Virus record (IMG/VR): IMGVR_UViG_3300036816_000007
Coordinates: 1,839 to 65,838 of that record
Reading direction: 5' to 3' (one strand)
Length of the DNA stretch: 64,000 nt
Origin: a virus
The translations under genes and the position numbers were made by a program. How positions within the stretch are numbered: position 1 is the stretch's first letter; each line of letters opens with the position of its first letter. The notes below the pieces were generated by a model that had not been told where the DNA came from, made no database searches, and saw nothing but the letters and a program-made list of their open reading frames with translations. Positions 2,661 through 26,250 of the stretch are shown here, piece by piece.

Positions 2661-3221
2661 TTATTTAAGCGCGGCGAGTGCGGCTTCTGCTTGCGCGATA
2701 TCTGCGTTGGCTTTCGCAATAGCCTCTTCATACTCATTGAGCGCGTCTGTTCGATCCGAATATGTCGAAGGTTCCATACCCATGGACTTATAATTCTCGA
2801 TCTCAGCAGCGATCCGATCCCGACCTTCTGTTCGAGGTTTGAGTATGTTACTCTCAATAACGCTTATCGTTTCTTGCAGCCTTTCCTTCGACCATCCCGT
2901 GTACTTAGTATCGGAAGTCTCCGTACTTACTTCTGCCTGTTTGGTTGAGTCCTCTACGTCGCTTGTCGTAACTGTAATAGTTTTTCCGCTCACTTTGATA
3001 TCCGCCCCTAACGCCTCAGATATTCCGCGAACAGGTACGTTAGCTTTCCCGTCGATAACCGCGCCTTTATCCGCGAGCTTTTTACCGTCAACAATAACGG
3101 TATATTCTCCAGTTACCTTTTTACCGACGAGTGACTTAACGCTGTCCGCAAATGCACCGGCAGTTGTCGAAAGAACGAATCCGATCAATATACCGCCGGC
3201 AATGTATGCTACTTTTTTCAT
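2661..3221 (-). CDS. secreted protein with a Cu-amine-oxidase-N1-like domain and a coiled-coil C-terminus
   Basis: Signal peptide MKKVAYIAGGILIGFVLSTTAGAFA. The domain VIVDGKKLADKGAVIDGKANVPVRGISEALGADIKVSGKTITV is paralogous to the endolysin C-terminus. Confidence 0.7.
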   Translation of the reverse strand: MKKVAYIAGGILIGFVLSTTAGAFADSVKSLVGKKVTGEYTVIVDGKKLADKGAVIDGKANVPVRGISEALGADIKVSGKTITVTTSDVEDSTKQAEVSTETSDTKYTGWSKERLQETISVIESNILKPRTEGRDRIAAEIENYKSMGMEPSTYSDRTDALNEYEEAIAKANADIAQAEAALAALK

Positions 3222-5442: not shown

Positions 5443-5964
5443 TTAGTAGAGATACTTGTCGCGATGCGTTACGCGAGTCCGGACAGTGCGCGCCGCTTCC
5501 GTATCACGGTACGTAATCTTATTCGCTCCATAGACGAGATCGAAGAAATCGCCGGTCATTAAGTGAAGCGCAGTATCTCCGTTAATCGTCACCGTTTGCC
5601 GCTTCGTATCAATTACGATAACGTCGCCGGGTTTGAAGTCGCCACTATACGCAATTTCGTTTACATGCGCGTGTGTTACGTTTACTACGAAATCCGTCGC
5701 CGTAGTTATAGACGCGCCAAATAACCGCTCGCGGACTAATTGCGCAAGCAGTTCGGTTGCTGTCGATATCTCCGCGTACATCGCCATCTCGCGGGTAAAT
5801 TCCGCAGATAGGTCCGTCGCGCTTTCGAACGTAACCGTAACGGGAAAGTCCACGCTGATTCGCGTAGACAAGTCCGTTGCTGATTCGACAGTTACTGTAA
5901 AGAGCGCCTCGAACGAGAGTGTCCGGTTAAAAGGAGCCCGGTTAAATGGCGCTCGATTAAACAT
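5443..5964 (-). CDS. tail protein carrying the C-terminal signature of siphovirus distal tail (Dit) proteins
   Basis: The C-terminus GDFKPGDVIVIDTKRQTVTINGDTALHLMTGDFFDLVYGANKITYRD...THRDKYLY matches the Sipho_tail C-terminal pattern. The N-terminus has an FNRAP tandem repeat. The start overlaps the upstream stop (ATGTTTAA). Confidence 0.6.
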   Translation of the reverse strand: MFNRAPFNRAPFNRTLSFEALFTVTVESATDLSTRISVDFPVTVTFESATDLSAEFTREMAMYAEISTATELLAQLVRERLFGASITTATDFVVNVTHAHVNEIAYSGDFKPGDVIVIDTKRQTVTINGDTALHLMTGDFFDLVYGANKITYRDTEAARTVRTRVTHRDKYLY

Positions 5965-6187
5965 CGGACTTGCCGCCCGCCGTCTCCGCGTATTCCTCTT
6001 CCGTGATCCAACCGTTAGTGAGAGCGCGGTCGAGGTCCACCTTGTTGTACGTGGTGGATGCGTACTCTTTAACCGGCGCGATGTAGGCGGGTATGATGTC
6101 CGGAAATGACTTCGTACCGTGGCGGAAGATTGCGGTTGAGTACGCGACTTTAAGCGAATTGATTATCGTTGCTGACGCTGTTCCCAT
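5957..6187 (-). CDS. XkdX-family-like small protein
   Basis: The motif LDRALTNGWITEEEYAETAGG resembles the XkdX signature. The gene is located after the fibre genes. Confidence 0.55.
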   Translation of the reverse strand: MGTASATIINSLKVAYSTAIFRHGTKSFPDIIPAYIAPVKEYASTTYNKVDLDRALTNGWITEEEYAETAGGKSDV

Positions 6188-6493
6188 TTACGCAGCACCT
6201 CCGTTAGCTAACGTTTCCCACAAGTCGATGACAGCGAGATTAAGCGCGGCTGTTTCCGCTTCGGCTGCGGATAGGCGCGCTTTAATCTCCGTTAATCCTT
6301 CGGCTGGCGTACCTTGCTCTGAATCAGATTTCAACGATTCGTCCAACACCGCTTTCCCGTCTTGCCAACGATAATAACCAGCATTGATTCCAATGGGAAG
6401 GGGTGTAGGAATGTCCACTTCTTGGTATCCATTGTATTCATACTCAATAATGTCCCGGATGATGTTTCCGTCCGATTTGATATAAAATTTCAC
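6188..6493 (-). CDS. hypothetical fibre-associated protein (XkdW-like position)
   Basis: 101 aa. It lies directly between the fibre gene and the XkdX-like gene. Its C-terminal helix is LSAAEAETAALNLAVIDLWE. Confidence 0.45.
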   Translation of the reverse strand: MKFYIKSDGNIIRDIIEYEYNGYQEVDIPTPLPIGINAGYYRWQDGKAVLDESLKSDSEQGTPAEGLTEIKARLSAAEAETAALNLAVIDLWETLANGGAA

Positions 6494-6503
6494 AGGGCAC
6501 CTC

Positions 6504-8357
6504 CTATTGAATTAGAGCGATAATCTTGCGGCTATCTCCGGCCGATCCTCCCTCTTTTGCGTAACCAATGACCCCAACATCTGTCTCTAACATAAGAGCA
6601 ACAATGTTACCTACCTTTGCGACTTTTTCGCTGGGTATTTTGAATACATTTACAAATGGAGCGCTATTAGAAGCAAGCGCCAAGTAACTTCCGTCAGGAG
6701 TTATCGCTAATCGGTTTGCAGATTGGCTCTTTGCATCTCTTGAATCAGTAGCCCGGTACATCTGATCTCCTCGTTGGCTATATGTTAGAATGTCTGGACT
6801 GTTGTTAGACTGGACTAAAAATAATTTCATTTTGCTTGGATGATACACAGCATCCGATGATTGAACAGGAGTTTTAGTCTGAGTATCAGGAACTTTATTA
6901 AAAACGTCTCCAGCACGCTTATATGTTGTTAAAGTAGCTCCGCCGAAATGCGTAACCGTTAGATAATTTTCGTCATATGAGAAATCAAGACCTCCACCTA
7001 GTCCAGGAGGAACTATAGAAGGGTCTGTAATCTTTGACAATACGTCACCTGAACGTTTGTAAATCAAGATATACGGGGCTACTGTGTAAGAAATTGCTAT
7101 GAATACACCCGAAGGTGAGATCGCAATATTTCTAGGTGCGCTAGAGAGCGGATTAACACTTGGGTCAGCCAGTTTTGTGAACGTATCACCAGTGCGCTTG
7201 TACACCATGAAGTAAGGTGCGACACTGAGTATCATGTAGATGTACGTCCCATCGTTAGCAGCGCGGAGGTATGCAATTGATCCGCCGGGTAACACTGTTG
7301 GGTCAGGTAACTTGGTAAACGTATCACCCGAACGCTTATAGATCATAAGGTAAGGCGCAACACCAATCCCTACATAAAGGTAATCAGCGTTTGGAGAAAA
7401 TGCTAAGGCGTTGGGTAATCCTCCAGGCAGAACGCTTGGATTTGCCAATTTAGTGAACACGTCGCCTGAGCGCTTGTATATCAACAGAAACGGAGTAGCA
7501 TTCGATCCTACAACCATGTAATCGTTTGTCATAGCTATTCCGATGCTCGCCGCAGGAGGCGCTGTCGAGAGCGCGGGCAACAGTTCTATTGGCGGAGTAT
7601 ACATCCTCACCATATCCCCTTGTGCGATATCTTCACTGTAGGTGACGGTCACTTCCGTCTGACCAGGTATTTTCACCTCCCCGCCGCCGCTATCTGCTAA
7701 AAAATCCGATCCTACTTTACGGAAGGTGTAGGGCTTCCCAACCAGTAGATCACCAGCTGCGTAGAAACTACCGTCCTGTTTTTTAAGTGGTGACGCACCT
7801 AATCCATTGATATTAAGCGTCGCTCCAGCGGCATTTGTTACGTGTGGCACAATCGTGATTCCAAATCCGTCCGGTAGCGCTGTAGGCGCAGGACTTAGCG
7901 TAGCGACATATGCCGATGCAGTTCCCGTAGTAACCGCGTATCCTGGCTGACGTATATAATTCGCAGTAACAGCGCTAATCTTTTCGTCGGTGTACGTGTT
8001 AGCACCGCCTAAAGCGTCGTCCGCGTATCCCTGCGCCCTGACGAGAGCATCCGCAATATTAGCGCGTCCCGCCTCGTAGTCATACGCGGTATGATTCCGC
8101 GCCGCCTGCGTTCCTGCCGCCCACCCTTTCGCTGTACCTTCGAATCCACGCGTACATCCAGTGAGCGTATTGCCCGTTTTCCCCGTATAGCGGATTGTCT
8201 CCGCAGTCTCATCGCTTCCCACCGTCACGAGGTTCGGAGCGGCCGGAAGCTTAGACGCATCCAGTACGTCAATACTCGTTGCGGATGCGTTAATATCTGC
8301 GGCGAGCTCCGTTCCCGGGGAATTAATCATCGCAGCGTACATCGGTAATTGCGCCAT
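6504..8357 (-). CDS. tail fibre / receptor-binding protein with a C-terminal beta-propeller
   Basis: The N-terminus IDVLDASKLPAAPNLVTVGSDETAETIRYTGKTGNTLTGCTRGFEGT is typical of Bacillales phage fibre N-termini. The C-terminal half has seven ~46-aa repeats. Confidence 0.75.
   Translation of the reverse strand: MAQLPMYAAMINSPGTELAADINASATSIDVLDASKLPAAPNLVTVGSDETAETIRYTGKTGNTLTGCTRGFEGTAKGWAAGTQAARNHTAYDYEAGRANIADALVRAQGYADDALGGANTYTDEKISAVTANYIRQPGYAVTTGTASAYVATLSPAPTALPDGFGITIVPHVTNAAGATLNINGLGASPLKKQDGSFYAAGDLLVGKPYTFRKVGSDFLADSGGGEVKIPGQTEVTVTYSEDIAQGDMVRMYTPPIELLPALSTAPPAASIGIAMTNDYMVVGSNATPFLLIYKRSGDVFTKLANPSVLPGGLPNALAFSPNADYLYVGIGVAPYLMIYKRSGDTFTKLPDPTVLPGGSIAYLRAANDGTYIYMILSVAPYFMVYKRTGDTFTKLADPSVNPLSSAPRNIAISPSGVFIAISYTVAPYILIYKRSGDVLSKITDPSIVPPGLGGGLDFSYDENYLTVTHFGGATLTTYKRAGDVFNKVPDTQTKTPVQSSDAVYHPSKMKLFLVQSNNSPDILTYSQRGDQMYRATDSRDAKSQSANRLAITPDGSYLALASNSAPFVNVFKIPSEKVAKVGNIVALMLETDVGVIGYAKEGGSAGDSRKIIALIQ
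6587..7565 (-). repeat. seven tandem ~46-aa blade-like repeats inside the fibre gene (approximate limits)
   Basis: A recurring motif appears seven times with decay: APY(L/F/I)(M/L)(I/V)YKR(S/T)GD(T/V)FTKL.DP(S/T)V.P. Confidence 0.7.
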
Positions 8358-8369
8358 CTAATCGCCTCC

Positions 8370-8768
8370 TTAGTTCGTAAACTTAACGGATGTTCCGTCC
8401 TTGAGAAACCGCGGCTTATCGCCAGTTTGGATCGTACGCGGATTGTCTACCGCTTTGGACCATAAAAGATCCCCGCCAGTCAACGCGCTTCTTAGCCCGA
8501 TATGTGTAACGAGGCCCCAATCCGCAGTCGCCGTGGGAAACTCGATATCCGCCGCGTTTTTAACCGTTTGATTGCCGCCTTCAAGCGTAGGGGCCGCGAA
8601 AGTAATCGGAATCCGTACGTAGCTGCCTCCGGTTACTTCCGAGCCTGTATCCGCCGGAGTGGGATCGGATTTATATAACGCGAGGTAAATCGTGGTGGGC
8701 GCGGTATATGGTACATTGCGCAACACATGGTTAAAGATAGCTGCCGATAGCTTATTCGAAATGTTCAA
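8370..8768 (-). CDS. conserved phage protein of the fibre cassette (function unknown)
   Basis: 132 aa. The pattern GGSYVRIPITFAAP...NAADIEFPTATADWGLVTHIGLRSALTGGDLL recalls a family that I remember as being found next to phage fibre genes. Confidence 0.5.
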   Translation of the reverse strand: MNISNKLSAAIFNHVLRNVPYTAPTTIYLALYKSDPTPADTGSEVTGGSYVRIPITFAAPTLEGGNQTVKNAADIEFPTATADWGLVTHIGLRSALTGGDLLWSKAVDNPRTIQTGDKPRFLKDGTSVKFTN

Positions 8769-8779
8769 ACTAACGCCTC

Positions 8780-9322
8780 CTAAAGTGTGTATTCGTTCGT
8801 AATGCGGAACCCGCGAATCGTTGTCGTGCCCGTATTCGTCAGCGTAATAACCGGCTGTGCGTTAACATCGGCCGCCGAGTCAACCGTTATCGTTTCGGGC
8901 GATTTCGTAATCTCAACTTCCGTCACCTTTTCCGCGCCAGTCGGCCACGGATCGTTCATCTTGAGCGCGATATTAACTTCGCGACTACCGACAGCTCCGA
9001 GCGCAAGCGTCCCGTTATAAACCGCGCGGTAATACTTGCCGGGCATATCCGCAAACTCCAGCGTCAGCTCTCCGCGCTTGGCGTTAAATATCTGCGCGAG
9101 TTTCGCAAGTGTGGCGTGGAATTGCGCGCCTGGCGTCGTAATAAACAGCGTCATATCAATCGTGCGAGCTCCGTATGTGCTGCCGAAATCGAGCAATCCG
9201 TCCGTATCCGCGAGCTTCACGGTGTACTCGTCAGACTCCGGTAAAACAGGAAGACGCCGCTCAAGGAGAGCAGCGCCTATTGACGAAAGCCATACGTTAT
9301 TCACTTTTACATCGTAGTTCAA
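8780..9322 (-). CDS. distal tail protein, N-terminal-domain type (phage tail family protein)
   Basis: It lies immediately after the tape measure and overlaps it by 4 nt. The sequence NNVWLSSIGAALLERRLPVLPESDEYTVKL...ELTLEFADMPGKYYRAVY fits the phage tail component N-terminal domain. It ends at ...IRGFRITNEYTL. Confidence 0.7.
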   Translation of the reverse strand: MNYDVKVNNVWLSSIGAALLERRLPVLPESDEYTVKLADTDGLLDFGSTYGARTIDMTLFITTPGAQFHATLAKLAQIFNAKRGELTLEFADMPGKYYRAVYNGTLALGAVGSREVNIALKMNDPWPTGAEKVTEVEITKSPETITVDSAADVNAQPVITLTNTGTTTIRGFRITNEYTL

Positions 9323-16745: not shown

Positions 16746-17864
16746 TTAGGATACGGTTGTGCTGATGTTTTCGAGGATCGCGATTTTCTCGCCGGCATTC
16801 TTAACGGTAACCCCGTACTCACCACGGATTTGACGAGCCACGAAGTCAGCGCCCGCAATGGAGGCGTCCATATCGTGTACCGCACGGCCATTCAGCGGGT
16901 CGATCGACAGGATGCTGCGGTCGAACATCGCGATTTTGTTTTTCGGGAAGTTTGGATCAACGATGACTGTCGCGACAGAACCGCCTACGATATCAGACAC
17001 GAACGTTTGGATCTTGTGACCAGTAGTCGTATCAGTGCGCTCGGTACGGATTGTGTCGCTAGCGAATTTCGAGATTTGACGCGCACCAGCGGTATTTGTC
17101 AAGATTGTATTTACGGAGCCTCCGCGTTGATACACTTTCTCCGCTAGGTTGTTCAGGAGAGTTGGCGTAATTTCTCCGCCTGCTGCGTTCTCTTTAGCCG
17201 CGCCTTTCTTATCAGCGAAGTACAACAGACCGCCTGTCATGCGCGGAGTTCCAGGCGCGCCATCGATACGGCGGCCGTAGATCAACCAGTCGTTAAGCTC
17301 GCGTTGCAGCTCTTTCAGACGCAATTGAACTTGATAGTTCAACTCGTCATCAACGTTGTAGGTGCGGACAGCTTGTTGCGTTTTGGAAACTGCTGCATAG
17401 CGCTCGATGATTTGTGTAACGTTGTAATCCACGTAACGGTCGTGACCTTCGTCTACGCCGGGTAGTGCCCCTTCCAGTTGCGGACGCGCTACGATACGGA
17501 TTTCGTCACCTGCGGCGATGTCCGCGGCAGTAGTTCCGTCGAATCCACGAACAACTGTGATAACGTCGCCCGCAACAGCGGTGACTTTCAAATACTCTTC
17601 ACCCGCAACAGCAACCGCATTAACGCGGAATTTCAAACCGTCCCCAATAGCGACAGTAATGGATGTGGCGGATGCGGAAGCCACTGCGGCAGCTACCGCA
17701 CGGTTAGAGTTTAGAGAGTCGGACATCCATTCAAACTTCGTTTGATAGAGCGGGGAACTTCCAAGCCCGATCAAACCGAGCAACGTCGGCTCATCATCGA
17801 TGATAAGAGAAATACCTGCTTCGAGCTGGCGTACTTGGTCCTGGAATGAGTAAGTTTTCAACAT
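16746..17864 (-). CDS. major capsid protein
   Basis: 372 aa, placed after the scaffold gene. The motif TKFEWMSDSL and the overall pattern resemble the DUF5309/SU10-type capsid family. Confidence 0.8.
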   Translation of the reverse strand: MLKTYSFQDQVRQLEAGISLIIDDEPTLLGLIGLGSSPLYQTKFEWMSDSLNSNRAVAAAVASASATSITVAIGDGLKFRVNAVAVAGEEYLKVTAVAGDVITVVRGFDGTTAADIAAGDEIRIVARPQLEGALPGVDEGHDRYVDYNVTQIIERYAAVSKTQQAVRTYNVDDELNYQVQLRLKELQRELNDWLIYGRRIDGAPGTPRMTGGLLYFADKKGAAKENAAGGEITPTLLNNLAEKVYQRGGSVNTILTNTAGARQISKFASDTIRTERTDTTTGHKIQTFVSDIVGGSVATVIVDPNFPKNKIAMFDRSILSIDPLNGRAVHDMDASIAGADFVARQIRGEYGVTVKNAGEKIAILENISTTVS

Positions 17865-17937: not shown

Positions 17938-18609
17938 TTACTTGCTTAATTTGTTTGACAGTTCGATTACCTTCGCGAAATCCTTCGACTTCTTCGCGTC
18001 ACTCAATTGTTGCTCGATTGTTCTGCGTTCGTCATCCCCCGGATTATGCTTCGTATCACCGATTGAACTCGGCTTCTTCGGAACATCCGCGAGATACGGT
18101 TTATTCGTTAACAGCGCCTTAACTGCGTCCGCTACGCCAACAGGATTATCGTTATCGTCAACGCTGACTGACGTCAAGTTAGCGAGTATATACGCATCCT
18201 CTAGCGCATCGGCACGCACGTTCAATTCGCGAGCTACCACTTTGAACTCCGCTTTGATAAGGCGCTGGTTAGCGGCTGATAATGCGGCCTCTTTCGCCTG
18301 CTCTGCTTTCTGTGCGCGTTCTAGCGCTTCGGCCTTCTCGGCTTCGAGGCGTTCTGTGACAGACAACTCCGCTCTCTTTCGCTCCTCTTCGGCCTTCTCA
18401 TTTTCGGTAACTTTCGCCTTCAACTCTTCGTAATCCGCGTACTTACTTCGCTCTCTTTTCAGACGGTCCGCGATCAAACGGTCAACTTCGTCCTGGTTAA
18501 ACGCCTTTGGCTGCGGATCAGCCGGTGGATCTTGCGGAGTTGGTGCCGGATTCGGATCGTCTTCTTCTGCGAAAAGTTGCAAGTTCATCGGATACTTAAC
18601 GTTTGTCAT
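17938..18609 (-). CDS. capsid scaffolding protein
   Basis: It has the MNLQLFAEE motif (DUF4355-like) and Glu/Lys-rich coiled coils. It lies upstream of the capsid gene. Confidence 0.7.
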   Translation of the reverse strand: MTNVKYPMNLQLFAEEDDPNPAPTPQDPPADPQPKAFNQDEVDRLIADRLKRERSKYADYEELKAKVTENEKAEEERKRAELSVTERLEAEKAEALERAQKAEQAKEAALSAANQRLIKAEFKVVARELNVRADALEDAYILANLTSVSVDDNDNPVGVADAVKALLTNKPYLADVPKKPSSIGDTKHNPGDDERRTIEQQLSDAKKSKDFAKVIELSNKLSK

Positions 18610-18689
18610 ATCAGTTCCTCCCGCGTTTAAGCGCCGCGTAGCGCATAGTATCCGTCAGTTTAACGACGTATCGTAGGTCGTGCCCAACG

Positions 18690-20969
18690 TTACAGATTAA
18701 CGCGGACAGATTTGCGGAAAATTCCGTAGCCATACGAAAATTCGACCCAAGTGACGCCGTTTGGAGTGGCGTATTGCGCCGATAAGTAGTAATCATCGTT
18801 ACTCTTTTCCGTAACCGTTAGCTTTGCGAATGGGCCAGCGCTTGTCATGACGTCTACTTGGCCAGTTTCAGCTTTGGTAGGGTCGAAGTTTAAAGCCGCA
18901 CGCAAGGTTACCGTTATGGTCGATCCTGCATGTACTGCACTGATCTCTATCTCGTCGCCAGCATGATATGCGAGAGACGAGTTCCAGGCGGTGTTAAATG
19001 CAACCCAACCTTCCGTGTAACCTGCCGGAGCTTTCGGATTATACGGATAAGCGAACTCTTTCGGAGATCCGTCGATTACACCCACAACGTCCTGCAGAAC
19101 GCCTGAGCCGCCGACATAAAATGTAGGCCAACCCTTATCTACGCCTTCGATTTCTTTTGGCCCGTCGTAGCTAAAGTGCATTCCCATCGGATTCCGTCCG
19201 AATGCGTTATCCAGTTGCGCAATACCGATTTCCTTGATGCGTGCTTCTTTTGCCGGATTACTGATTACGCGAGCCGCAGCGTATGCCGCCGAAAGGAATC
19301 CCGTAAGGTTGCCCGGTTCGTTATAGCGGATCATTCCGCCGGTCCACTGATCGGCTTTATACTTCGTACCATCGTTCGGATCAGCGTATTTGCGCAGGTC
19401 CCAAAGGTTATTAGAGCGCGCAATCATAACGTCAACCCAACGGCTAATTTTCTCGCGAGTTCCATTCGGAGCTATTTCCGGATACTTTTCGAGCATATAC
19501 GCTAAGCCTTGAATGGTTACGTACTCGCTCATACGCTGACCTTTCGTCATCGCCGGATCGTCTAAGTCTACGGATTCGACCAACCACTTCGCGTTGTTTA
19601 CCGCCGCGTCCTTGTACTGTTGCGGATTAGCCAAGCCGTCACGTAGAGCCACCTCGTACATAAGCAGGTTCGGACGAATTGCGTAACCGGGCGGCTTTTC
19701 GCCTTTAATACCGCCTATGCTCGGTTGCACTTCGAGCAAGTTGTTATTTGTTGTCAACGTGTGAAATGCTGCTGTCTCGTACCAATGGTAGTTAGACTGT
19801 GGCTCTGCCCACACTTCCACCGCAAAGTCCCGTATCTTGGTGTAAAATGCCGCAGTGACATGCTGCTTAATATCCGGATATAGTGACAAGAAATACGGAA
19901 GCTGTGCCTTAATTAAAGCGTGGTGCTTCTTGCCTTGGTTCTTCCAAAGATCCCAATACCGCAGGACGCCAAATTTCATGAGCCAGATAATGTCGGGCTC
20001 GGTTTGCGTTCGCAGTTCTGTATATTGACTGGTCGCGAGGTTGCTGATCCCCTTTGTCATACGTTCGTACGCGCTCGGATTAGCTTGGTACTGTTGCGTC
20101 AAACTCTCCAATTCAAACGAGAATTGATGACTATCGCGCCAAGCAACGCCATTCTGTCCAACCAAAAACACATCGCTTCGAGACTGATCCATGAATCGGA
20201 GCGTTGGTCCTACGGAAATTCGCTGTGTCCAATACTTTCCGATGCTGAATATATACGACTTGATGCCTGCGCACTCCATATAAAAATCACCGGAGCTCTG
20301 AAATGGCGTAAAGTCGGCGATTTGTCCTTGGACAGTTCCGTTAAAAACGGAAGTATCGTCAGGTTTCGTTTTAATAGCGAAAGGCGTACCGTCTGGAACA
20401 TTCGTAACAGTAGCCCGCTTGGACTTGCGCGCATCGAATCCGGACTGATTCAGATAGATAGCTTGAGTCTCGGTATCCGTTATGCCTGCGCCCATCGGTT
20501 CCGGTCTGTCGCTAGGACTGAACTCGAACCTGATTTGTCCAGCTCTCGTATTGCCAACGTCCGCTTTTACAGCGACCGACATTACCGTACCCGCTTCGGC
20601 TGTTATCGTAGTGAGTTTGAACCATGTCCCACCGTTAATTCTCTGGTTTACAAACTTAACCCAAGTTCCGCCCAGTGATGTAATCGTATACTCTGCCTGC
20701 TCTGTATTTAAGTTACCAGACGGATACCAGGCGTAGACATTGTAAACACCAGTTTTGTCCGCGTAACGGCTCCACTCCGCTGTGTCCCCACGCGTAGATG
20801 AATAGGAAGTGCTTCCGGAATCAAATCCGGTCAAGCTACTCACTAGCCAATTTCCTGTTTCGCGATAGTTCGAGTCACTTCTGAAAATCTTGTAATCCCA
20901 ATTCAATTGTCTACCGCGCTTCATACTCCTTACCGGGACCAAGTGTCGTGATGGTTTAATTCTGCTCAT
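18690..20969 (-). CDS. GH9-like multidomain glycan-binding/hydrolase-like protein
   Basis: 759 aa with three recognisable parts: a golvesin-like N-terminal domain (NWLVSSLTGFDSGSTSYSS...VYNVYAWYPSG...GGTWFKL), a CelD_N-like Ig domain (IYLNQSGFDARKSKRATV) and a GH9-like barrel (FGRNPMGMHFSY; YTEGWVAFNTAWN). The DAGD motif position reads WRDSHQ. Confidence 0.6.
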   Translation of the reverse strand: MSRIKPSRHLVPVRSMKRGRQLNWDYKIFRSDSNYRETGNWLVSSLTGFDSGSTSYSSTRGDTAEWSRYADKTGVYNVYAWYPSGNLNTEQAEYTITSLGGTWVKFVNQRINGGTWFKLTTITAEAGTVMSVAVKADVGNTRAGQIRFEFSPSDRPEPMGAGITDTETQAIYLNQSGFDARKSKRATVTNVPDGTPFAIKTKPDDTSVFNGTVQGQIADFTPFQSSGDFYMECAGIKSYIFSIGKYWTQRISVGPTLRFMDQSRSDVFLVGQNGVAWRDSHQFSFELESLTQQYQANPSAYERMTKGISNLATSQYTELRTQTEPDIIWLMKFGVLRYWDLWKNQGKKHHALIKAQLPYFLSLYPDIKQHVTAAFYTKIRDFAVEVWAEPQSNYHWYETAAFHTLTTNNNLLEVQPSIGGIKGEKPPGYAIRPNLLMYEVALRDGLANPQQYKDAAVNNAKWLVESVDLDDPAMTKGQRMSEYVTIQGLAYMLEKYPEIAPNGTREKISRWVDVMIARSNNLWDLRKYADPNDGTKYKADQWTGGMIRYNEPGNLTGFLSAAYAAARVISNPAKEARIKEIGIAQLDNAFGRNPMGMHFSYDGPKEIEGVDKGWPTFYVGGSGVLQDVVGVIDGSPKEFAYPYNPKAPAGYTEGWVAFNTAWNSSLAYHAGDEIEISAVHAGSTITVTLRAALNFDPTKAETGQVDVMTSAGPFAKLTVTEKSNDDYYLSAQYATPNGVTWVEFSYGYGIFRKSVRVNL

Positions 20970-20983
20970 ACCTCACGCCCTCC

Positions 20984-21580
20984 TTAGCGTTTAACTCCGA
21001 TAAATCGTATGGTAATGCTTCCAGTCGTTGGCGCGGCAGATGCTTTATACGCGAGAGAAAAGGCGCCATCAATATTGAATCGAGTTTCAAAAAGATGATC
21101 AGGTGATTTCACTTTTTTAGTTCCTGCAGCGTTTGACTTCGGGGCCATCTCGTTCAGGAAGAATACGCCACTATTTGCGGCCGCCTTCTTAGGAACGACC
21201 CAACTATACGCATCATCTGTCGCTACCGTAGTGGAAAATATCCCGATCGTGTCGTCTTCAAATACAGCTGGAGCAGTGTTCCAAGGCACAACTCGCAAAT
21301 CCTGATCTAGTCCGTTGAAAACTTGGATCACGTAGCGTTTGTACTTAAGCAAACTAGGCAATGCAACTGTCTTGGCATTCCCGTCTCTAACTTGCTCGCT
21401 GGTTAGTAAAGTAATAATTTCGATCGGATCAGTCTCTGTGTTGGTGCCTGTACCTGTTGTTCCTCCTGCTTGTTTAACTGGAAGCATCTCTCCTGAGTTG
21501 ATAAAATCTGCGCCTTGAATATCGACGGGCACAACAACTGAGCTGCCGGCTAGGGTCACACCATTGTCTGTAATACGCAT
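20984..21580 (-). CDS. hypothetical beta-rich protein
   Basis: 198 aa with an AAGGAGG SD. It is part of the 3-gene block between the MuF-like and scaffold genes. Confidence 0.55.
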   Translation of the reverse strand: MRITDNGVTLAGSSVVVPVDIQGADFINSGEMLPVKQAGGTTGTGTNTETDPIEIITLLTSEQVRDGNAKTVALPSLLKYKRYVIQVFNGLDQDLRVVPWNTAPAVFEDDTIGIFSTTVATDDAYSWVVPKKAAANSGVFFLNEMAPKSNAAGTKKVKSPDHLFETRFNIDGAFSLAYKASAAPTTGSITIRFIGVKR

Positions 21581-21583
21581 CGA

Positions 21584-21847
21584 TTACCGCGCCTCCTTGC
21601 CGGCAACGATTTGGTAGAATCCAGATGCTACGATTTCAATCCGGTCAAAGGGGGCAAGCGACCATTCGATACTTTGTCCGTCTTTCATCACGAAATTACT
21701 TACGATGACATACCTTTGGTTTTTCACTGTAAACGTTAAATCTGCGCCACTCTTGTTGTTAAGGAACAGCGCCGTAGCTGTCGTACCCAATTCCACCGTC
21801 TTATTCGTAGTCGCCGTAGTTGCCTCTATCACGCGTTTCTCTGCCAC
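21584..21847 (-). CDS. hypothetical small beta-rich protein
   Basis: 87 aa with a GTG start after GGAGGAGG. Confidence 0.5.
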   Translation of the reverse strand: MAEKRVIEATTATTNKTVELGTTATALFLNNKSGADLTFTVKNQRYVIVSNFVMKDGQSIEWSLAPFDRIEIVASGFYQIVAGKEAR

Positions 21848-22690
21848 CTAAATACCTCCTCCGATATTTTCCGGACTTCTTACCGGAGACAGTACGTGAC
21901 GGCAACGTGGATGGAATATTTCGCGGCGAGGTAGGAAGCCAACGTACGGATACTCTCCAGGAGCGTCCGGAATTAATTTGACGATGCGCCCCTCCCATTG
22001 AGCACACGCATCGTTTGCGCCATGACTTGATATCCTGGCGTAAAAAGCGCCTCGTCCGATCGCTTCGTTCATCGTTGCGTCTCGGTGCGCGGCGTTAAGT
22101 TTCGTTCGTGTTACGGTATCGACGTATACTTCCGGCTTCCAGCGTCGTCCTGCTGCGTCTATAATGCCGGTGTCCGTCGCTTGGCCGAGTGTCTTACGGA
22201 TGCCCGCGAGTGTGTCCGCGTTTATCGTACGGCGACCGTTAATGCCTGACGCCATGTTAGCGCGGAAAGACTCTGCGGTAGCTTGGCGAACAGCCTGACG
22301 TACACGGCGGTCGATATTTTGCGTAACCGCAAGTAAATCCGCCTGCGTATCCGCGATTGCCGACGCTACGAGCTCGCGGTTGATCCGGTTAAATTTAACG
22401 ATCTTCTCCGCATCTGCCAACGTACTAGCGACGCCTAGTTCGACGATTGCCCGCGCTATTCCATCCGTTGCTGCTTTCGGTACATACTCCGCAACCCAGG
22501 CGGCCGACTCCGCGTTCAGATCACGCAAAATAGCCGCAATCTCAGCGAGAGCGGCCTTTGCATGTGCGCGTGATATGTCGGATACATCAAGGCGTGATAG
22601 TTCCGTGGCTATTGCCAGGATTCCGCGTTTATATGCGTTAACGAGACGGTTGATATCGCGGTCATAGTTCGGATCAGGAATCCGCGCCAT
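21848..22690 (-). CDS. minor head protein (Mu F / SPP1 gp7 family)
   Basis: The C-terminus FHPRCRHVLSPV and the position directly after the portal gene support the call. Confidence 0.75.
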   Translation of the reverse strand: MARIPDPNYDRDINRLVNAYKRGILAIATELSRLDVSDISRAHAKAALAEIAAILRDLNAESAAWVAEYVPKAATDGIARAIVELGVASTLADAEKIVKFNRINRELVASAIADTQADLLAVTQNIDRRVRQAVRQATAESFRANMASGINGRRTINADTLAGIRKTLGQATDTGIIDAAGRRWKPEVYVDTVTRTKLNAAHRDATMNEAIGRGAFYARISSHGANDACAQWEGRIVKLIPDAPGEYPYVGFLPRREIFHPRCRHVLSPVRSPENIGGGI

Positions 22691-24249
22691 TATACGATGA
22701 CCTCGTTAAATATTTCGCTATCGACCGTTCCGTTAACGCGTTTCTCATCGTCGTCAATACGGCGTAGCATTTCTTCCGCAAGCTTATCGTCAACTCCGTC
22801 GAGGTATTTAACCGCGTCGCTAACGGACATTGTCGGTTTGGCTCCGGTTCGGATGCTCGCAACCTCAGCGGCTTCTTTCTCATCACGCGGCAGTCCATCA
22901 CGCCAGTTAATCCGCGGATAAATCGGCTCGTACGGTTCGAAGTCCGGAACACCATCATTTGCGTAGTTTTCGAGCTGCATCGCGGTCCAAATCGCCTCAC
23001 GAAGCGCCTTATCAACATGTGCGCGTATCCGGTTGACTTTCGCCAGGATCGGCATGAACCGCGCTTTAATTGCACCGGAATCCGTATGTGAGGTACCGGT
23101 GCCCCCTTTATCCGCGGCAAGCGTAGTACCGAACAGCCATTGCGGCGTTTCGCTCATTTGATAGACGAGGCCGAGAAGGACATCGAGTTCCTTAAATGCG
23201 CCGTCAAGCTGCGAATTCCACGTCATATACCCCGGCACTACGTCGTCTTTGCTGACTTCGATGTACTTACCGCCAAAACGTACGGCATTCTCGTCGCTTT
23301 CATCAACTTCCGGTCCGTATGCAGTTGGGTCACTGTGCTTCCACAGAATGTAATCGATTTGTACGAGTCGGTCGTTAATCGCGGCCAGCACGCTCTCAAG
23401 CTTCTCTATGCCGCTGATTCCTTCCCATCGGTCATCCACGCTCTTATACGGAATGTGATGTACAAGTAAGCGGTCAGTTCCGGTCGGTACTACGTCTACA
23501 TCGCGTCCGGTATCTACGGCATCGCCAATCGTAAATGTCGCAATTGGAACGCCCCACTGGTCGTTAACGCCTTTATCTTCGAGTTTAAAACGCTCATACA
23601 GGATGTATCCCGGTACATGACGCTCGACCACGAGGTATGGCGTATAGCTTCGATCAATTCCCGAGATAAATCGTACGATGCGTCCGTTCGGCTCTTCCAC
23701 CCAATCGATCCATGCGATATTGAACGCTTTGAACTTCTTACGTGATCCGTTCGATAGCTCCGGGAAGACGATGTTCGCCGGTACCGCTTCAATAATTGGC
23801 TCAAGTTCCGTTTCTGGCGCAGGTAATCCGAGTGCTTCCGTCTCACTAACGTCTGCGCGCGTACCGAAATACGTCTTGAGATACGAGTCGCCGCGGTAAC
23901 CTCCGCCGATGACGAGCTCGTGTGTAGCTTGAACCAAATCGTTCTCCTCAACGATGGAATCAAGCCGTTCCTGCTCGCGGCTGCCTGCGCCTGTTCCGCT
24001 TTCAAACGTTGGCGGCTCACCGGTTAGTAGATCCGCGGGCTTCGTCAGCAAAATATCCATCAAGTTCACCGCGATAAATAACGTTTGGAGCTGCGGCGCG
24101 TGCGGAGTGTCTTGTAAAAGTGATGCCGCTCTGTCATAGATCTCAGGATGGCGACCGTCGAAGATGATGCGTCCACGTTTATATCGGGCCAGGCGTGGAA
24201 TATCCTCCTCCGGCGGGTACTGCGATCCTGTCGTAAATATTCGTGCCAT
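22690..24249 (-). CDS. portal protein
   Basis: ~519 aa. The call rests on its position and on the N-terminus YPPEEDIPRLARYKRGRIIFDGRH. The ATG at 24249 follows AGGAGGA. Confidence 0.8.
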   Translation of the reverse strand: MARIFTTGSQYPPEEDIPRLARYKRGRIIFDGRHPEIYDRAASLLQDTPHAPQLQTLFIAVNLMDILLTKPADLLTGEPPTFESGTGAGSREQERLDSIVEENDLVQATHELVIGGGYRGDSYLKTYFGTRADVSETEALGLPAPETELEPIIEAVPANIVFPELSNGSRKKFKAFNIAWIDWVEEPNGRIVRFISGIDRSYTPYLVVERHVPGYILYERFKLEDKGVNDQWGVPIATFTIGDAVDTGRDVDVVPTGTDRLLVHHIPYKSVDDRWEGISGIEKLESVLAAINDRLVQIDYILWKHSDPTAYGPEVDESDENAVRFGGKYIEVSKDDVVPGYMTWNSQLDGAFKELDVLLGLVYQMSETPQWLFGTTLAADKGGTGTSHTDSGAIKARFMPILAKVNRIRAHVDKALREAIWTAMQLENYANDGVPDFEPYEPIYPRINWRDGLPRDEKEAAEVASIRTGAKPTMSVSDAVKYLDGVDDKLAEEMLRRIDDDEKRVNGTVDSEIFNEVIV

Positions 24250-24532
24250 CAATGTCCTCCTCTCCGCTCAGTATTGCTCGAATTATTCCAACACGTTCCA
24301 ATCGTTTTGGATCGACTTCGCCACGCAAATGCGCAGCAAGCTCAGACCAGAACAAAAAGCCCAGCGCGACCATACGGTGTTGGCGAGAGCCTGCGTTTAA
24401 CGTTGCTAGATGCTCTCGTAAAGCCCGATTCTTCTGTGCTGAGAATGTTGCCCACTTGTCCGAGTCAGTTCGCTTCACCTGCGTCAGGTATTCGTTCTCT
24501 ATCGACATCCAGTAGCTGGTTAAGTCAAACAT
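24179..24532 (-). CDS. hypothetical protein between TerL and the portal
   Basis: Start MFDLTSYW lies 9 nt after GGGAGGAG. The 3' end overlaps the portal start out of frame by about 70 nt. Confidence 0.5.
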   Translation of the reverse strand: MFDLTSYWMSIENEYLTQVKRTDSDKWATFSAQKNRALREHLATLNAGSRQHRMVALGFLFWSELAAHLRGEVDPKRLERVGIIRAILSGEEDIDGTNIYDRIAVPAGGGYSTPGPI

Positions 24533-24549: not shown

Positions 24550-26250
24550 TTACATCCACTTCGGCTTATTCTTGACTCTATTCTTGCCCGTCTTTGCAAT
24601 ACTTACGGCTTGCTCAAGGGCATCCGGCAAGTCATCGTGCGAGCCTGTGCCGTAATATTCGAACTGTTCAAGCAAAAGCGTATGTTTCCGTGAAAATTGA
24701 ATAGCGCCACTCTCGATATCCGGGAGCAGCGCCTCTATACGGAGCTCTTTACGACTCCGTTGGTGTATTTCCTTAACGCGGGTACTAGCCGGATATCCTG
24801 CGGCTCTCAGCGCCTCTTTCAGCTTCTGTACGAAGAACTCCTGCGCCGCCTGAGCCTCCGCAGCGATTCCATTCGGCTGATAGCGCATAACCTTCTCGAC
24901 GATGACGCGAATAAACTCGTCAGGCTTAACGCGCTCACCGTACGCATCGATAACGTACTTCGTTCCGGTCTTCTTGTGGCGTGCGATCGTAACAATGGCG
25001 GAATAGTCTCCGCGCTGTTTACCCATCGCAAAGTCAACGCCCATGTATACGTCAAATACGTTAGCTGGCGGAGGATATTGCGTTAGGAGTTCACGAACAT
25101 CCGCGCTATCCCAATACGTAAATGACTCCGGATTGAATATCATCGATTCCTCATCGACCGGATTGTTCATGTACTCCGTATTGAACGCCTTCGCTCCGTT
25201 ATCCCATTTCCACGCCATCAACTTCCATATTGGCTGTGCTTCCGGCCATAGTACTACGGCTCCTCGGTCCATTTCCTTGCGATTAGCTTCGTAAAGGGCT
25301 CGTGCGTCCCTAGCGCGTTCATCTTTCGGTCTGTCCGGATCTTTATAGACGAGATGGCACGCTTCCCATAAGTCCATACGCGCGGGCCATTCGATAATCG
25401 CGCGGTAGACACGGCTCTTAAAATCCGAACGGTTGTATAAAACGTCAACAAGGAGCGCTTCGTGATGGACCGTTGTTCCCATGTAGATAAACGCGGTCTT
25501 CTTGCCGCGCGGATCTCCGAGAGGTACGACAGTCTGTGCGAACCAATCCTTGAGCTTCTTCCGTAGTTCCGGAGTCGCCGCGTTAGACTTGATATCTTCC
25601 AAGTCGTCACATACGATCAAATCCGGCCGCACACCGTTCCAGTTACGTCCACGGAGCGCCTGGCCCGTTGAGGCAGCCTCTACCTTCGTAAGCAGCCGTT
25701 TCGTACCATCTTCGCGCGGTTCCCATGCGATAAACTCCGATGAGTTATCTTTCGGATTCTCTTGTTGCTTCGGACTCAGTAACGGACCGAAGTCCGCACG
25801 TAACTTCGCGTTACTCTTGAGCTGCATCGCAATCCAATCGAGGTTGGCGGATGATACCGCAGGCGTCTCCGATATGATGATCTCGTATTTACGCTTTCGA
25901 TACGTAATCTCCCGTATCGGCATCGCCTTGGATAAATACGTTGATTTAGCGTGAGATCGGGGCGCCGCCTCCGCTACCTTATCGTTTGTATGAACGTTGC
26001 TTACATCGTCCATAAGCGCGCAGATTTCACGGTGAAAATCAGGAGCTTCGTCGTACTCCGTAATATCAAACCCGTCCCAGTTTCCGTCGTTGCCGGGATT
26101 CCGCGCATCTGAGAAGTATTCTAGCGCAAATTCGATAAGATTCGTTTCGCAGCGGTGTACCCGTTCTAGGCGCTCATATTCCGCAAGCTGTGCGTCAATA
26201 TCCGCCGCGTCATCCGCTGAAAGGTCGGCGATATCTACGCCTTCAAGCAC
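24550..26250 (-). CDS. terL: terminase large subunit
   Basis: Walker-A-like AAPRSHAKSTYLS, Walker-B-like LIVCDDLED and a C-terminal nuclease region. The 5' end is uncertain (see findings). Confidence 0.85.
   Translation of the reverse strand: MLEGVDIADLSADDAADIDAQLAEYERLERVHRCETNLIEFALEYFSDARNPGNDGNWDGFDITEYDEAPDFHREICALMDDVSNVHTNDKVAEAAPRSHAKSTYLSKAMPIREITYRKRKYEIIISETPAVSSANLDWIAMQLKSNAKLRADFGPLLSPKQQENPKDNSSEFIAWEPREDGTKRLLTKVEAASTGQALRGRNWNGVRPDLIVCDDLEDIKSNAATPELRKKLKDWFAQTVVPLGDPRGKKTAFIYMGTTVHHEALLVDVLYNRSDFKSRVYRAIIEWPARMDLWEACHLVYKDPDRPKDERARDARALYEANRKEMDRGAVVLWPEAQPIWKLMAWKWDNGAKAFNTEYMNNPVDEESMIFNPESFTYWDSADVRELLTQYPPPANVFDVYMGVDFAMGKQRGDYSAIVTIARHKKTGTKYVIDAYGERVKPDEFIRVIVEKVMRYQPNGIAAEAQAAQEFFVQKLKEALRAAGYPASTRVKEIHQRSRKELRIEALLPDIESGAIQFSRKHTLLLEQFEYYGTGSHDDLPDALEQAVSIAKTGKNRVKNKPKWM

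Follow-up and report, generated by a model that had tools for sequence, protein, structure and literature searches.

A mobile gene pair encoding a GH9-fold putative glycanase and a phage-only partner protein, inserted between the MuF and scaffold genes of a probable Paenibacillus phage

We describe here a gene cassette within the head operon of a phage represented by a 64,000-nucleotide (nt) stretch of the IMG/VR virus record IMGVR_UViG_3300036816_000007 (hereafter, the window, to which all coordinates refer unless a locus is named). Two genes of this operon, encoding a 759-aa multidomain protein with a divergent GH9 fold (p759, a putative glycanase) and a 198-aa partner (p198), constitute a mobile cassette that is found in at least four unrelated phage backbones. 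As a whole, the locus can be described as an insertion in two layers that occupies a permissive "moron" slot between the stop codon of the MuF gene and the conserved leader preceding the scaffold gene; the head operon concerned is SPP1-like. With respect to function, we favor, at what we consider an even chance, the hypothesis that p198 and p759 form a host-derived accessory glycanase cassette that is expressed late, is soluble, and is released at lysis.

Results

The insertion and its boundaries

An initial annotation, made from the sequence alone, had placed three genes with good Shine-Dalgarno (SD) sequences between a MuF-like gene and the scaffold gene, and its coordinates proved exact. 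The slot and its borders, all on the minus strand (-), are as follows:

21848-22690 (-): MuF/Phage_min_cap2, a short MuF2-type minor capsid protein (PF06152, E 1.8e-15; phrog_4611, E 2.5e-49); left-hand boundary of the slot
21584-21847 (-): p87, 87 aa, a small beta-rich protein and the first gene in the MuF/scaffold slot
20984-21580 (-): p198, 198 aa
18690-20969 (-): p759, 759 aa, a multidomain, divergent GH9-fold putative glycanase without a signal peptide
18610-18689 (-): leader upstream of the scaffold start, about 75 nt of it conserved; right-hand boundary of the slot
17938-18609 (-): scaffold gene (phrog_2303, E 3.1e-22; Phage_scaffold, E 1.6e-7, with a score of 31.9 bits that falls short of the Pfam cutoff of 35)

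The SDs are strong (GGAGGAGG for p87, and AAGGAGG for both p198 and p759), the start codon of p87 is a GTG immediately past the MuF stop, and packing is tight, with gaps of 0, 3 and 14 nt for MuF-p87, p87-p198 and p198-p759, respectively. The three genes are an insertion, as the initial annotation had proposed, because the MuF gene abuts the scaffold gene, in what we take to be the ancestral arrangement, in nine relatives, i.e., six metagenomic ones (L011-L015 and L018, which have homologous large terminase (TerL), portal, MuF, scaffold and major capsid proteins) and three cultured phages (P. larvae phage Tripp, Bacillus phage KLEB27-1, and Sporosarcina phage Lietuvens). Both p759 and p198 are real genes under purifying selection, since their ratios of nonsynonymous to synonymous substitution rates (dN/dS) between the window and two relatives (0.05-0.07 and 0.07-0.085, respectively) are in the range of that of MuF (0.07). 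The base composition of p759 (GC content 0.49; GC content at third codon positions 0.53) is close to that of the neighbouring genes (about 0.52 and 0.55), and the corresponding values for p198 are 0.46 and 0.41.

A consensus scan revealed no credible minus-strand promoter or terminator in or flanking the cassette, with total counts of promoter and terminator consensus matches at or below the shuffle expectation, although phage-specific promoters escape such a scan.

A mobile pair and a slot-bound gene

Among 5.8 billion proteins, p198 has 13 relatives, and none was found in 185,579 species-representative genomes. Each p198 homolog examined is encoded directly upstream of a 756-760-aa Golvesin_C+CelD_N protein, and the resulting pair occurs in the following phage contexts:

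Window type, a siphovirus with an SU10-type major capsid protein: L005, L006 and L007
Myovirus prophage of P. illinoisensis, with Terminase_3/Phage_cap_E: L001
HK97/ClpP-type temperate phages: L002, the P0005 contig, L033 and L035
GpA-terminase phage: L034

In the non-window backbones the pair is located upstream of the small terminase gene, that is, outside the head module, and in several cases near an integrase. The most direct evidence of mobility comes from L007, where the pair is 90-93% identical to that of the window, as opposed to 50% for p87 and 27-64% for the flanking genes; hence, the pair is mobile and p87 is bound to the slot. In a neighbour-joining (NJ) tree of the core region of the enzyme, the paired forms were monophyletic, with the head-slot copies nested within the pre-terminase copies. 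The cargo is thus present in only some of the related phages and also turns up in unrelated ones, which is the behavior of a moron.

The initial annotation had treated the three genes as one unit, a view that we have abandoned in favor of a portable p198+p759 pair and a p87 that is slot-associated and diverges with the backbone. An 84-aa protein at the p87 position in L008-L010 aligns weakly to p87 over its full length (E 5e-4) and has other cargo behind it, no p87-like gene stands beside the pair in L001/L002, and p87 gave no family matches and no database relatives beyond its own cluster. Kinship of p87 with the small genes beside the pair or beside MuF in L001 was also considered, and none was found. 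We therefore regard p87 as part of the slot, distinct from the mobile pair. The initial annotation had seen no recognisable motif in the 198-aa and 87-aa proteins, and neither of them matches a known family.

The partner protein p198

The N-terminus of p198 (aa 1-47) is acidic (isoelectric point (pI) 4.1) and flexible, with a conserved VDIQG...E.LPV motif, and is followed at aa ~50-198 by a jelly-roll beta-sandwich in the AlphaFold2 (AF2) model, with a predicted local distance difference test score (pLDDT) of ~85 over the folded part. This model had no significant match to folds in the PDB; the weak, non-significant matches include capsid-associated jelly-rolls. An exhaustive profile search found a few weak remote homologs that share a C-terminal YKAxxAPTxGxLTIxFxG motif, and one of them, P0147, has a coiled-coil N-terminus that we judged to be fibre-like; its PHROG matches are weak and involve the N-terminal parts of longer phage proteins, whose functions are either unknown or other than that of a fibre. 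No homology was found between p198 and the proteins encoded beside the enzyme in tail modules of other phages, or between p198 and the 169-aa slot protein of L008.

The N-terminal tail of p759 is conserved in all p198-paired copies (N-termini P0001-P0005), whatever the backbone. The opposite charges of the two N-termini, together with the obligate linkage of the genes, suggest that p198 and p759 may form a complex.

As a separate observation, a profile of the p198 N-terminus (21439-21580, aa 1-47) matches 5-18 repeats in giant, 1,700-7,500-aa Calx-beta proteins, with summed E values down to 1e-19. We judged the match to be probably compositional and rejected kinship with these proteins, although it could reflect a short beta-repeat motif.

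Domains and fold of p759

The domain organization of p759 is as follows, on the minus strand throughout:

20874-20969 (-), aa 1-32: disordered, very basic tail (pLDDT 37-38, pI 11.7) with three PxRxL-like repeats
20550-20873 (-), aa 33-140: Golvesin_C beta-sandwich (PF25275, E 1.9e-15, 57.5 bits, cutoff 31.6)
20259-20471 (-), aa 167-237: CelD_N Ig-like domain (PF02927, E 9.6e-7, 29.9 bits, cutoff 24.6)
18954-20237 (-), aa 245-672: helical GH9-like (alpha/alpha)6 core with the family-invariant motifs WRD279SHQFSFE, TKGQRMSEY, FGRNP and GYTE653GWVAFNTAWN
18693-18947 (-), aa 675-759: C-terminal beta-sandwich domain with eight strands (pLDDT 88-96)

The golvesin-like and CelD_N domains proposed initially are thus both above the Pfam cutoffs, and all the motifs quoted at the time are present (IYLNQSGFDARKSKRATV; WRDSHQ at aa 277-282; FGRNPMGMHFSY; and YTEGWVAFNTAWN, with E653). 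The Golvesin_C domain is a putative carbohydrate-binding module (CBM); its match to the CBM35 of the exo-glucosaminidase 2vzp was non-significant. CelD_N is the N-terminal domain typical for one GH9 subgroup, and the profile of the p759 family matches the Ig domain of the GH9 structures 6gdt (E 1e-5) and 3h7l (E 1.4e-4).

The AF2 model of p759, built with 43 homologs, has a pLDDT of 87.8 and a predicted template-modelling score of 0.83. Only GH9 enzymes are found among its best 14 Foldseek matches in the PDB (E 1e-12 to 5e-9; template-modelling (TM) scores of 0.48-0.59, target-normalised; ~12% identity); nearly all bear an Ig domain, and they include the Vibrio/Photobacterium exo-glucosaminidases, CbhA, the Paenibacillus xanthanase and CelA. 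Consistent with this, a profile-profile comparison of the family core with five verified GH9 sequences (a T. fusca E4 query, equal to 1js4 at 446 of 446 residues, and four GH9 sequences from the PDB output) gave an E value of 5e-5 over 333 columns. PF00759, the Pfam GH9 model, did not match p759 at E<=1, however, and matched only two of the 43 family members, weakly (E 0.005). Hence, p759 is GH9-like in fold and remote ancestry and lies outside GH9 as the family is now modelled. The GH9-like region of the initial annotation therefore holds by fold and by profile-profile comparison and fails by Pfam; the lack of GH9 similarity in a search with hidden Markov models, which had been named as grounds for dropping the claim, is found with Pfam and is overridden by these two lines of evidence. 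More generally, the ~520 aa beyond Golvesin_C and CelD_N matched nothing in Pfam, PHROGs or NCBIfam, and PHROGs and NCBIfam gave nothing for any member of the enzyme family. A PDB sequence search with p759 or the family profile gave nothing outside the Ig domain, and the BFVD viral structure library contained no whole-fold match.

When compared with the Ig-bearing GH9 enzymes of known structure (CbhA of C. thermocellum, 1ut9; CelA of A. acidocaldarius, 3gzk; the exo-beta-D-glucosaminidases of Vibrio/Photobacterium, 3h7l/5dgr/6gdt; and the xanthanase of Paenibacillus, 6fhn), p759 shares the G(R/D)NP motif, the first Asp of DAGD (D279, corresponding to E4 D55), and the domain order, in which a CelD_N Ig domain precedes an (alpha/alpha)6 barrel. 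An invariant Glu at or next to the position of the catalytic acid may be the counterpart of that residue. It differs in its low identity, in lacking the counterpart of E4 D58 and the HHR motif, in having invariant motifs of its own (WRDSHQFSFE and TKGQRMSEY), and in the extra Golvesin_C and C-terminal beta-sandwich domains.

A catalytic site altered throughout the family

The profile-profile alignment places FGRNP on the GDNP motif of GH9 and W-R-D279-S-H on W-Y-D55-A-G of E4. The column of the catalytic base, E4 D58, is a gap followed by Q282 (in the sequence-profile alignment only), and the region of the substrate-binding HHR motif (PHHRxxH) aligns to a gap or to unrelated residues. E653 is two columns off the catalytic acid E424 (NEVAxDYNA), and an ungapped register pairs E653 with E424, F658 with Y, and N659 with N. 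The initial annotation had read WRDSHQ at the DAGD position and considered activity uncertain for this reason. The site is indeed altered as stated, but WRDSHQ is invariant in 43 of 43 aligned sequences, secreted cellular enzymes included, along with ~45 further invariant positions; hence, the alteration is a property of the family, and decay of the catalytic site in the phage copy is ruled out.

It is possible, albeit improbable in our view, that p759 is a non-catalytic lectin, with the GH9-like core, Golvesin_C and Ig domains holding released phage in the matrix or masking receptors. Such a role would agree with the missing base Asp and the replacement of the neighbouring residue by Q282, with the absence of HHR and of a Pfam GH9 match, and with the low confidence at which the loop bearing WRDSHQ is modelled (pLDDT <50, residues 273-280). 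However, the motifs are also invariant in secreted, CBM- or dockerin-bearing cellular homologs at sugar-utilisation loci, where an enzyme would be expected, and D279, E653 and Y651 are among the invariant residues. Further, non-canonical bases serve other (alpha/alpha)6 families.

The enzyme family in bacterial genomes

A database search gave 358 relatives of the enzyme, and a search of species-representative bacterial genomes gave 222, the latter spanning Paenibacillus, gut Clostridia, Betaproteobacteria, Actinomycetes, Bacteroidota, Verrucomicrobiota and Planctomycetota. The long members of the family have signal peptides and extra CBM, fn3 or dockerin modules, and no signal peptide was found in the phage copies. 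The enzyme of the phage cassette comes from this widespread bacterial family, the long members of which are secreted, and, with these 222 bacterial relatives and its presence/absence among related phages, p759 has the attributes of an accessory enzyme of cellular origin. Two cellular copies lie in carbohydrate-utilisation contexts, L003 (AraC regulator, GH94-type phosphorylase and ABC permeases) and L116 (LacI- and AraC-type regulators). Our literature search found no paper characterising the family. Identity with the new beta-1,2-glucanase families (PMC12102758) was rejected, as the "GH9" text matches in that paper are to GH94/GH97, and a GH144 structure gave only a weak fold match to the p759 model (TM 0.25).

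GDSL esterases and GHL10-SLH proteins adjoin the enzyme gene in both of these Firmicutes loci. A PF12831-type FAD-dependent oxidoreductase is encoded near the enzyme gene in 24 of 80 genome loci (L036-L115), across phyla, as well as in L003 and L116. This FAD-oxidoreductase/GHL10-SLH/GDSL neighbourhood may hint at the pathway or the substrate of the enzyme.

Family members in other phages

Phages have captured this enzyme family several times. In a C. pasteurianum prophage the enzyme gene lies between those of a Phage_tail_C protein and Tal, in a 53-kb myovirus it lies past the baseplate genes, in two IMG/VR siphoviruses it is the final tail gene ahead of the holin, and an SPbeta-like phage is another carrier. 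No match was obtained by tblastn of p759 against 50,697 GenBank phage records or by megablast of the 13-kb head region.

These positions bear on two alternative hypotheses. Under the first, which we consider rather unlikely, the pair is a virion-bound depolymerase or adhesin, in which p198 (a knob on a flexible arm) and p759 would form a tail or capsid fibre or decoration that cuts polysaccharide at adsorption. Relatives that are the last genes of tail modules, beside Phage_tail_C or fibre-like proteins and just ahead of the holin, would suit this role, and the tail module of the window has no recognisable depolymerase. The coiled coil of P0147 (with the weak PHROG matches noted above), the N-terminal coiled-coil-like segment and fn3 domain of the enzyme in L027, the non-significant matches of p198 to capsid-associated jelly-rolls, and the repeated filling of the slot with glycanase-like cargo point in the same direction. 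On the other hand, an identical pair would have to dock on at least four unrelated virion architectures, the N-terminus of p759 is conserved across backbones instead of co-varying with them, p759 lacks the short N-terminal segments of the tail-module copies, and no PHROG structural family matches p198 or p759. Since the pair moves between phages with unrelated capsids, its position in a head module is weak evidence for a capsid role. Indeed, that it serves phages with at least three unrelated capsid/portal systems, in most cases from a site outside the head module, is the main argument opposing a head function. Although p759 has an Ig domain, the occurrence of the pair with SU10-type, Phage_cap_E and HK97-type capsids argues against Hoc-like, lattice-specific binding. 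Tailspike and tail-fibre depolymerases, with which p759 would have in common that it is a phage-encoded, polysaccharide-directed enzyme with relatives at the tail end, differ from it in sitting in the tail module, in usually being trimeric beta-helices rather than (alpha/alpha)6 barrels, and in having a virion anchor, none being recognisable in p759.

Under the second hypothesis, to which we assign a low probability, p759 is a lysis-accessory enzyme that, after the breach by holin and endolysin, would degrade a secondary cell-wall polymer or capsule retaining the progeny, with a logic like that of mycobacteriophage LysB. The missing signal peptide, the late operon position, and the tail-module copies just upstream of holin and endolysin are compatible with it, as may be the many invariant Arg/Lys residues of the family if the substrate were an anionic wall polymer. 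In the window, however, p759 is ~17 kb from the holin/M23 endolysin cassette (984-1956), nothing indicates that the host requires such a step, and the overlap with a soluble, lysis-released glycanase is large, only timing and target being different.

It should also be mentioned that a membrane acyltransferase (Acyl_transf_3) directly follows the enzyme gene in the C. pasteurianum prophage, the 53-kb myovirus and the SPbeta-like phage (L019/L020, L021/L022 and L023), and the two genes are possibly a pair that combines a depolymerase with receptor modification (superinfection exclusion). The acyltransferase genes are:

L019:11671-12720: Acyl_transf_3
L021:11709-12743: Acyl_transf_3
L023:12422-13498: Acyl_transf_3

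A recurrently filled slot

The leader upstream of the scaffold start is kept with or without an insert (window, L005, L007-L011, L014, L018 and L027). It contains a CGAC...GTCG hairpin, an invariant TAAACT(G) box, and, before the SD, a second short hairpin with two compensatory variants. The folding energy is weak (-4.7 kcal/mol). The leader might serve as a translational operator or as a late promoter. We rejected its description as a structured RNA, given only two short, weak hairpins and no Rfam match.

Other genomes carry different cargo in this slot:

L008:6012-7425 and L009:6844-8260: p87-like 84-aa gene, followed by 169-aa and 217/224-aa unknowns
L010:6844-8785: the same 84-aa gene, a 335-aa protein scoring just under the threshold for GH43 (30.2 bits, cutoff 32.2), and an unknown of 263 aa
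L016:3060-3902 (also L017): LAGLIDADG endonuclease, just behind a MuF gene whose alignment stops at residue 260

In addition, L027 has the window-type backbone, and its slot is occupied by a GH9-like family member of 1073 aa, with neither p87 nor p198. In the NJ tree, the closest company of the L027 enzyme is the copy from the C. pasteurianum prophage and a Paenibacillus enzyme that is secreted, away from the paired forms; hence, the slot captured the enzyme family at least twice, independently. A comparable arrangement is known from SPP1, in which three moron genes of unknown function (gp8-10) interrupt the late structural gene order (PMC6316719); from the gene numbering, these would lie between gene 7 (MuF) and gene 11 (scaffold). 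The cargo of the window resembles them in consisting of accessory genes within the late structural order that are polymorphic for presence among relatives, whereas the SPP1 segment contains oriR and is flanked by transcription signals of its own. No separate signals of this kind were found for the window cassette, and the cargo here is a large multidomain enzyme with a partner.

Two hypotheses give the slot itself a functional role. First, there is a slim chance that the MuF/scaffold junction is a dedicated cargo slot. A p87-like leader protein would then act with the portal-associated MuF to bring exchangeable carbohydrate-active enzymes inside the capsid or onto its surface, and p198 would be a portability adaptor. 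Second, in analogy to the MuF polymorphic toxins, the pair could be capsid-internal or portal-associated cargo that enters the head and leaves it together with the DNA on ejection, which we regard as very improbable. Variable C-terminal cargo domains are frequent in MuF proteins (Jamet et al. 2017, PMC5576092), the phrog_4611 profile has 710 positions of which the window MuF covers 5-273 only, the slot recurrently carries enzyme-like cargo behind a p87-like gene, and the very basic N-terminal tail of p759 might bind DNA. However, the window MuF, classed as a short MuF after PMC5576092, is a 280-aa protein with the MuF2 domain only and a stop codon at its end, and the cargo genes are separate ORFs (open reading frames) and not C-terminal fusions. 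Elsewhere the pair is far from MuF, including in backbones with Phage_portal+ClpP or GpA systems, the slot enzyme of L027 has no p87-like gene, and a glycanase of the secreted, CBM-bearing type has no obvious cytoplasmic target. The likeness to MuF toxins is thus confined to variable cargo 3' of MuF and a small ORF after MuF; the short MuF without a fused domain, the glycanase-like cargo and the occurrence of the cassette far from MuF set the window apart.

The phage and its head and tail modules

The genome is ~65 kb, has all genes on one strand, and encodes its own PolA, helicase, primase and ribonucleotide reductase. No integrase or acyltransferase was found among the ten large window ORFs scanned (smaller ORFs were outside the scan). 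The phage is probably a virulent siphovirus, and its host is probably a Paenibacillus, because the closest homologs are from Paenibacillus. The remaining head genes are:

24550-26250 (-): TerL
22690-24252 (-): SPP1-type portal
16746-17864 (-): SU10-type major capsid protein, downstream of the scaffold gene

The major capsid protein has 372 aa against the 292 positions of the SU10_MCP profile, and its residues ~54-159 match tail-fibre PHROGs (phrog_8469, E 1.3e-6), which suggests an inserted surface domain. The capsid protein of L007 (L007:9785-10765) is 27% identical to that of the window, as opposed to 50-64% for neighbouring head genes and 90-93% for the cassette, indicating that the capsid gene itself is exchanged mosaically.

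The tail module encodes a tape measure protein, Dit, a Gp80-like protein, a beta-propeller protein and Tal, followed by a BhlA holin and the M23 endolysin. Dit is split (5443-9322, (-)) in what looks like a further insertion, this time in the tail module:

8780-9322 (-): N-terminal Dit ORF, Sipho_tail
8370-8768 (-): Gp80-like protein, between the Dit halves
6504-8357 (-): 617-aa beta-propeller protein, between the Dit halves, which also enclose ~540 bp without an ORF of at least 110 aa
5443-5964 (-): C-terminal Dit ORF, SPP1_Dit

A Cu_amine_oxidN1-type domain, presumably a cell-wall-binding module, occurs both in the M23 endolysin (984-1622, (-)) and in a separate 186-aa protein (2661-3221, (-)).

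Discussion

We favor the hypothesis that p198 and p759 are a host-derived accessory glycanase cassette whose products are soluble and released at lysis. Since the cassette appears to lack promoter and terminator signals of its own, its products would be synthesised late, alongside the proteins of the head, with p759 probably in complex with p198; and since p759 has no signal peptide, it would reach its substrate only on cell lysis. It would then bind and cleave a host surface or matrix polysaccharide (exopolysaccharide (EPS), capsule or cell-wall glycopolymer), the clearance of which would allow the progeny to reach neighbouring cells. Enzymatic activity, the substrate, complex formation, and a soluble rather than virion-bound state are all elements that we infer. 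There is a precedent for such a strategy in PghP and LevP of Bacillus phage phiNIT1 (gp37.1 in SPP1), which are soluble, host-derived, non-virion depolymerases presumed to be released by lysis (PMC6966330, PMC6316719). The window cassette is similar to these in representing a host-derived enzyme without a signal peptide that is carried as accessory cargo by a phage of Bacillales, and differs from them in its unrelated fold and substrate, in its site in the head operon, in the partner p198, and in that solubility is inferred here.

Several of our findings weigh against this hypothesis. Without the base Asp and the HHR motif, p759 may use another chemistry or may serve chiefly to bind. A simple soluble-enzyme model does not account for p198, and its remote homolog P0147 has the fibre-like N-terminus described above. 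In (pro)phages of other Firmicutes, family members are encoded where the tail module ends, the classic site of virion-bound depolymerases, in agreement with the remark of the initial annotation that depolymerases normally belong to tail modules. Finally, two independent captures and a GH43-like gene in a single head slot mean that the slot itself could matter.

Depolymerases carried by phages, enzymes with a GH9 fold, and moron slots have each been described before. What is new is an uncharacterised enzyme family that lies outside current models and whose catalytic centre is remodelled, the strict association of this enzyme with a partner known only from phages, and its recurrent capture at one junction of the head operon. 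Specifically, our results define a family of carbohydrate-active type that combines the GH9 fold and a CelD_N Ig domain with a remodelled active site and that is outside Pfam (for the core), NCBIfam, PHROGs and solved structures. The fixed pair in Paenibacillus phages suggests a two-component depolymerase, which would be unusual and of use for the discovery of biofilm- or EPS-degrading enzymes. The locus is also a cautionary case, showing that the site of a gene within a head operon need not mean a head function: what is probably the moron slot of SPP1 genes 8-10 has here been filled repeatedly with cargo resembling glycanases. If the MuF/scaffold junction were a dedicated cargo slot, there would be phage heads with a swappable glycanase payload (two GH9-like lineages, a GH43-like protein and other cargo), and if the pair were virion-borne, it would represent a new means of arming capsids. 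If, as we favor, the products of the pair are soluble, the paradigm of PghP and LevP would extend to the polysaccharides of Paenibacillus.

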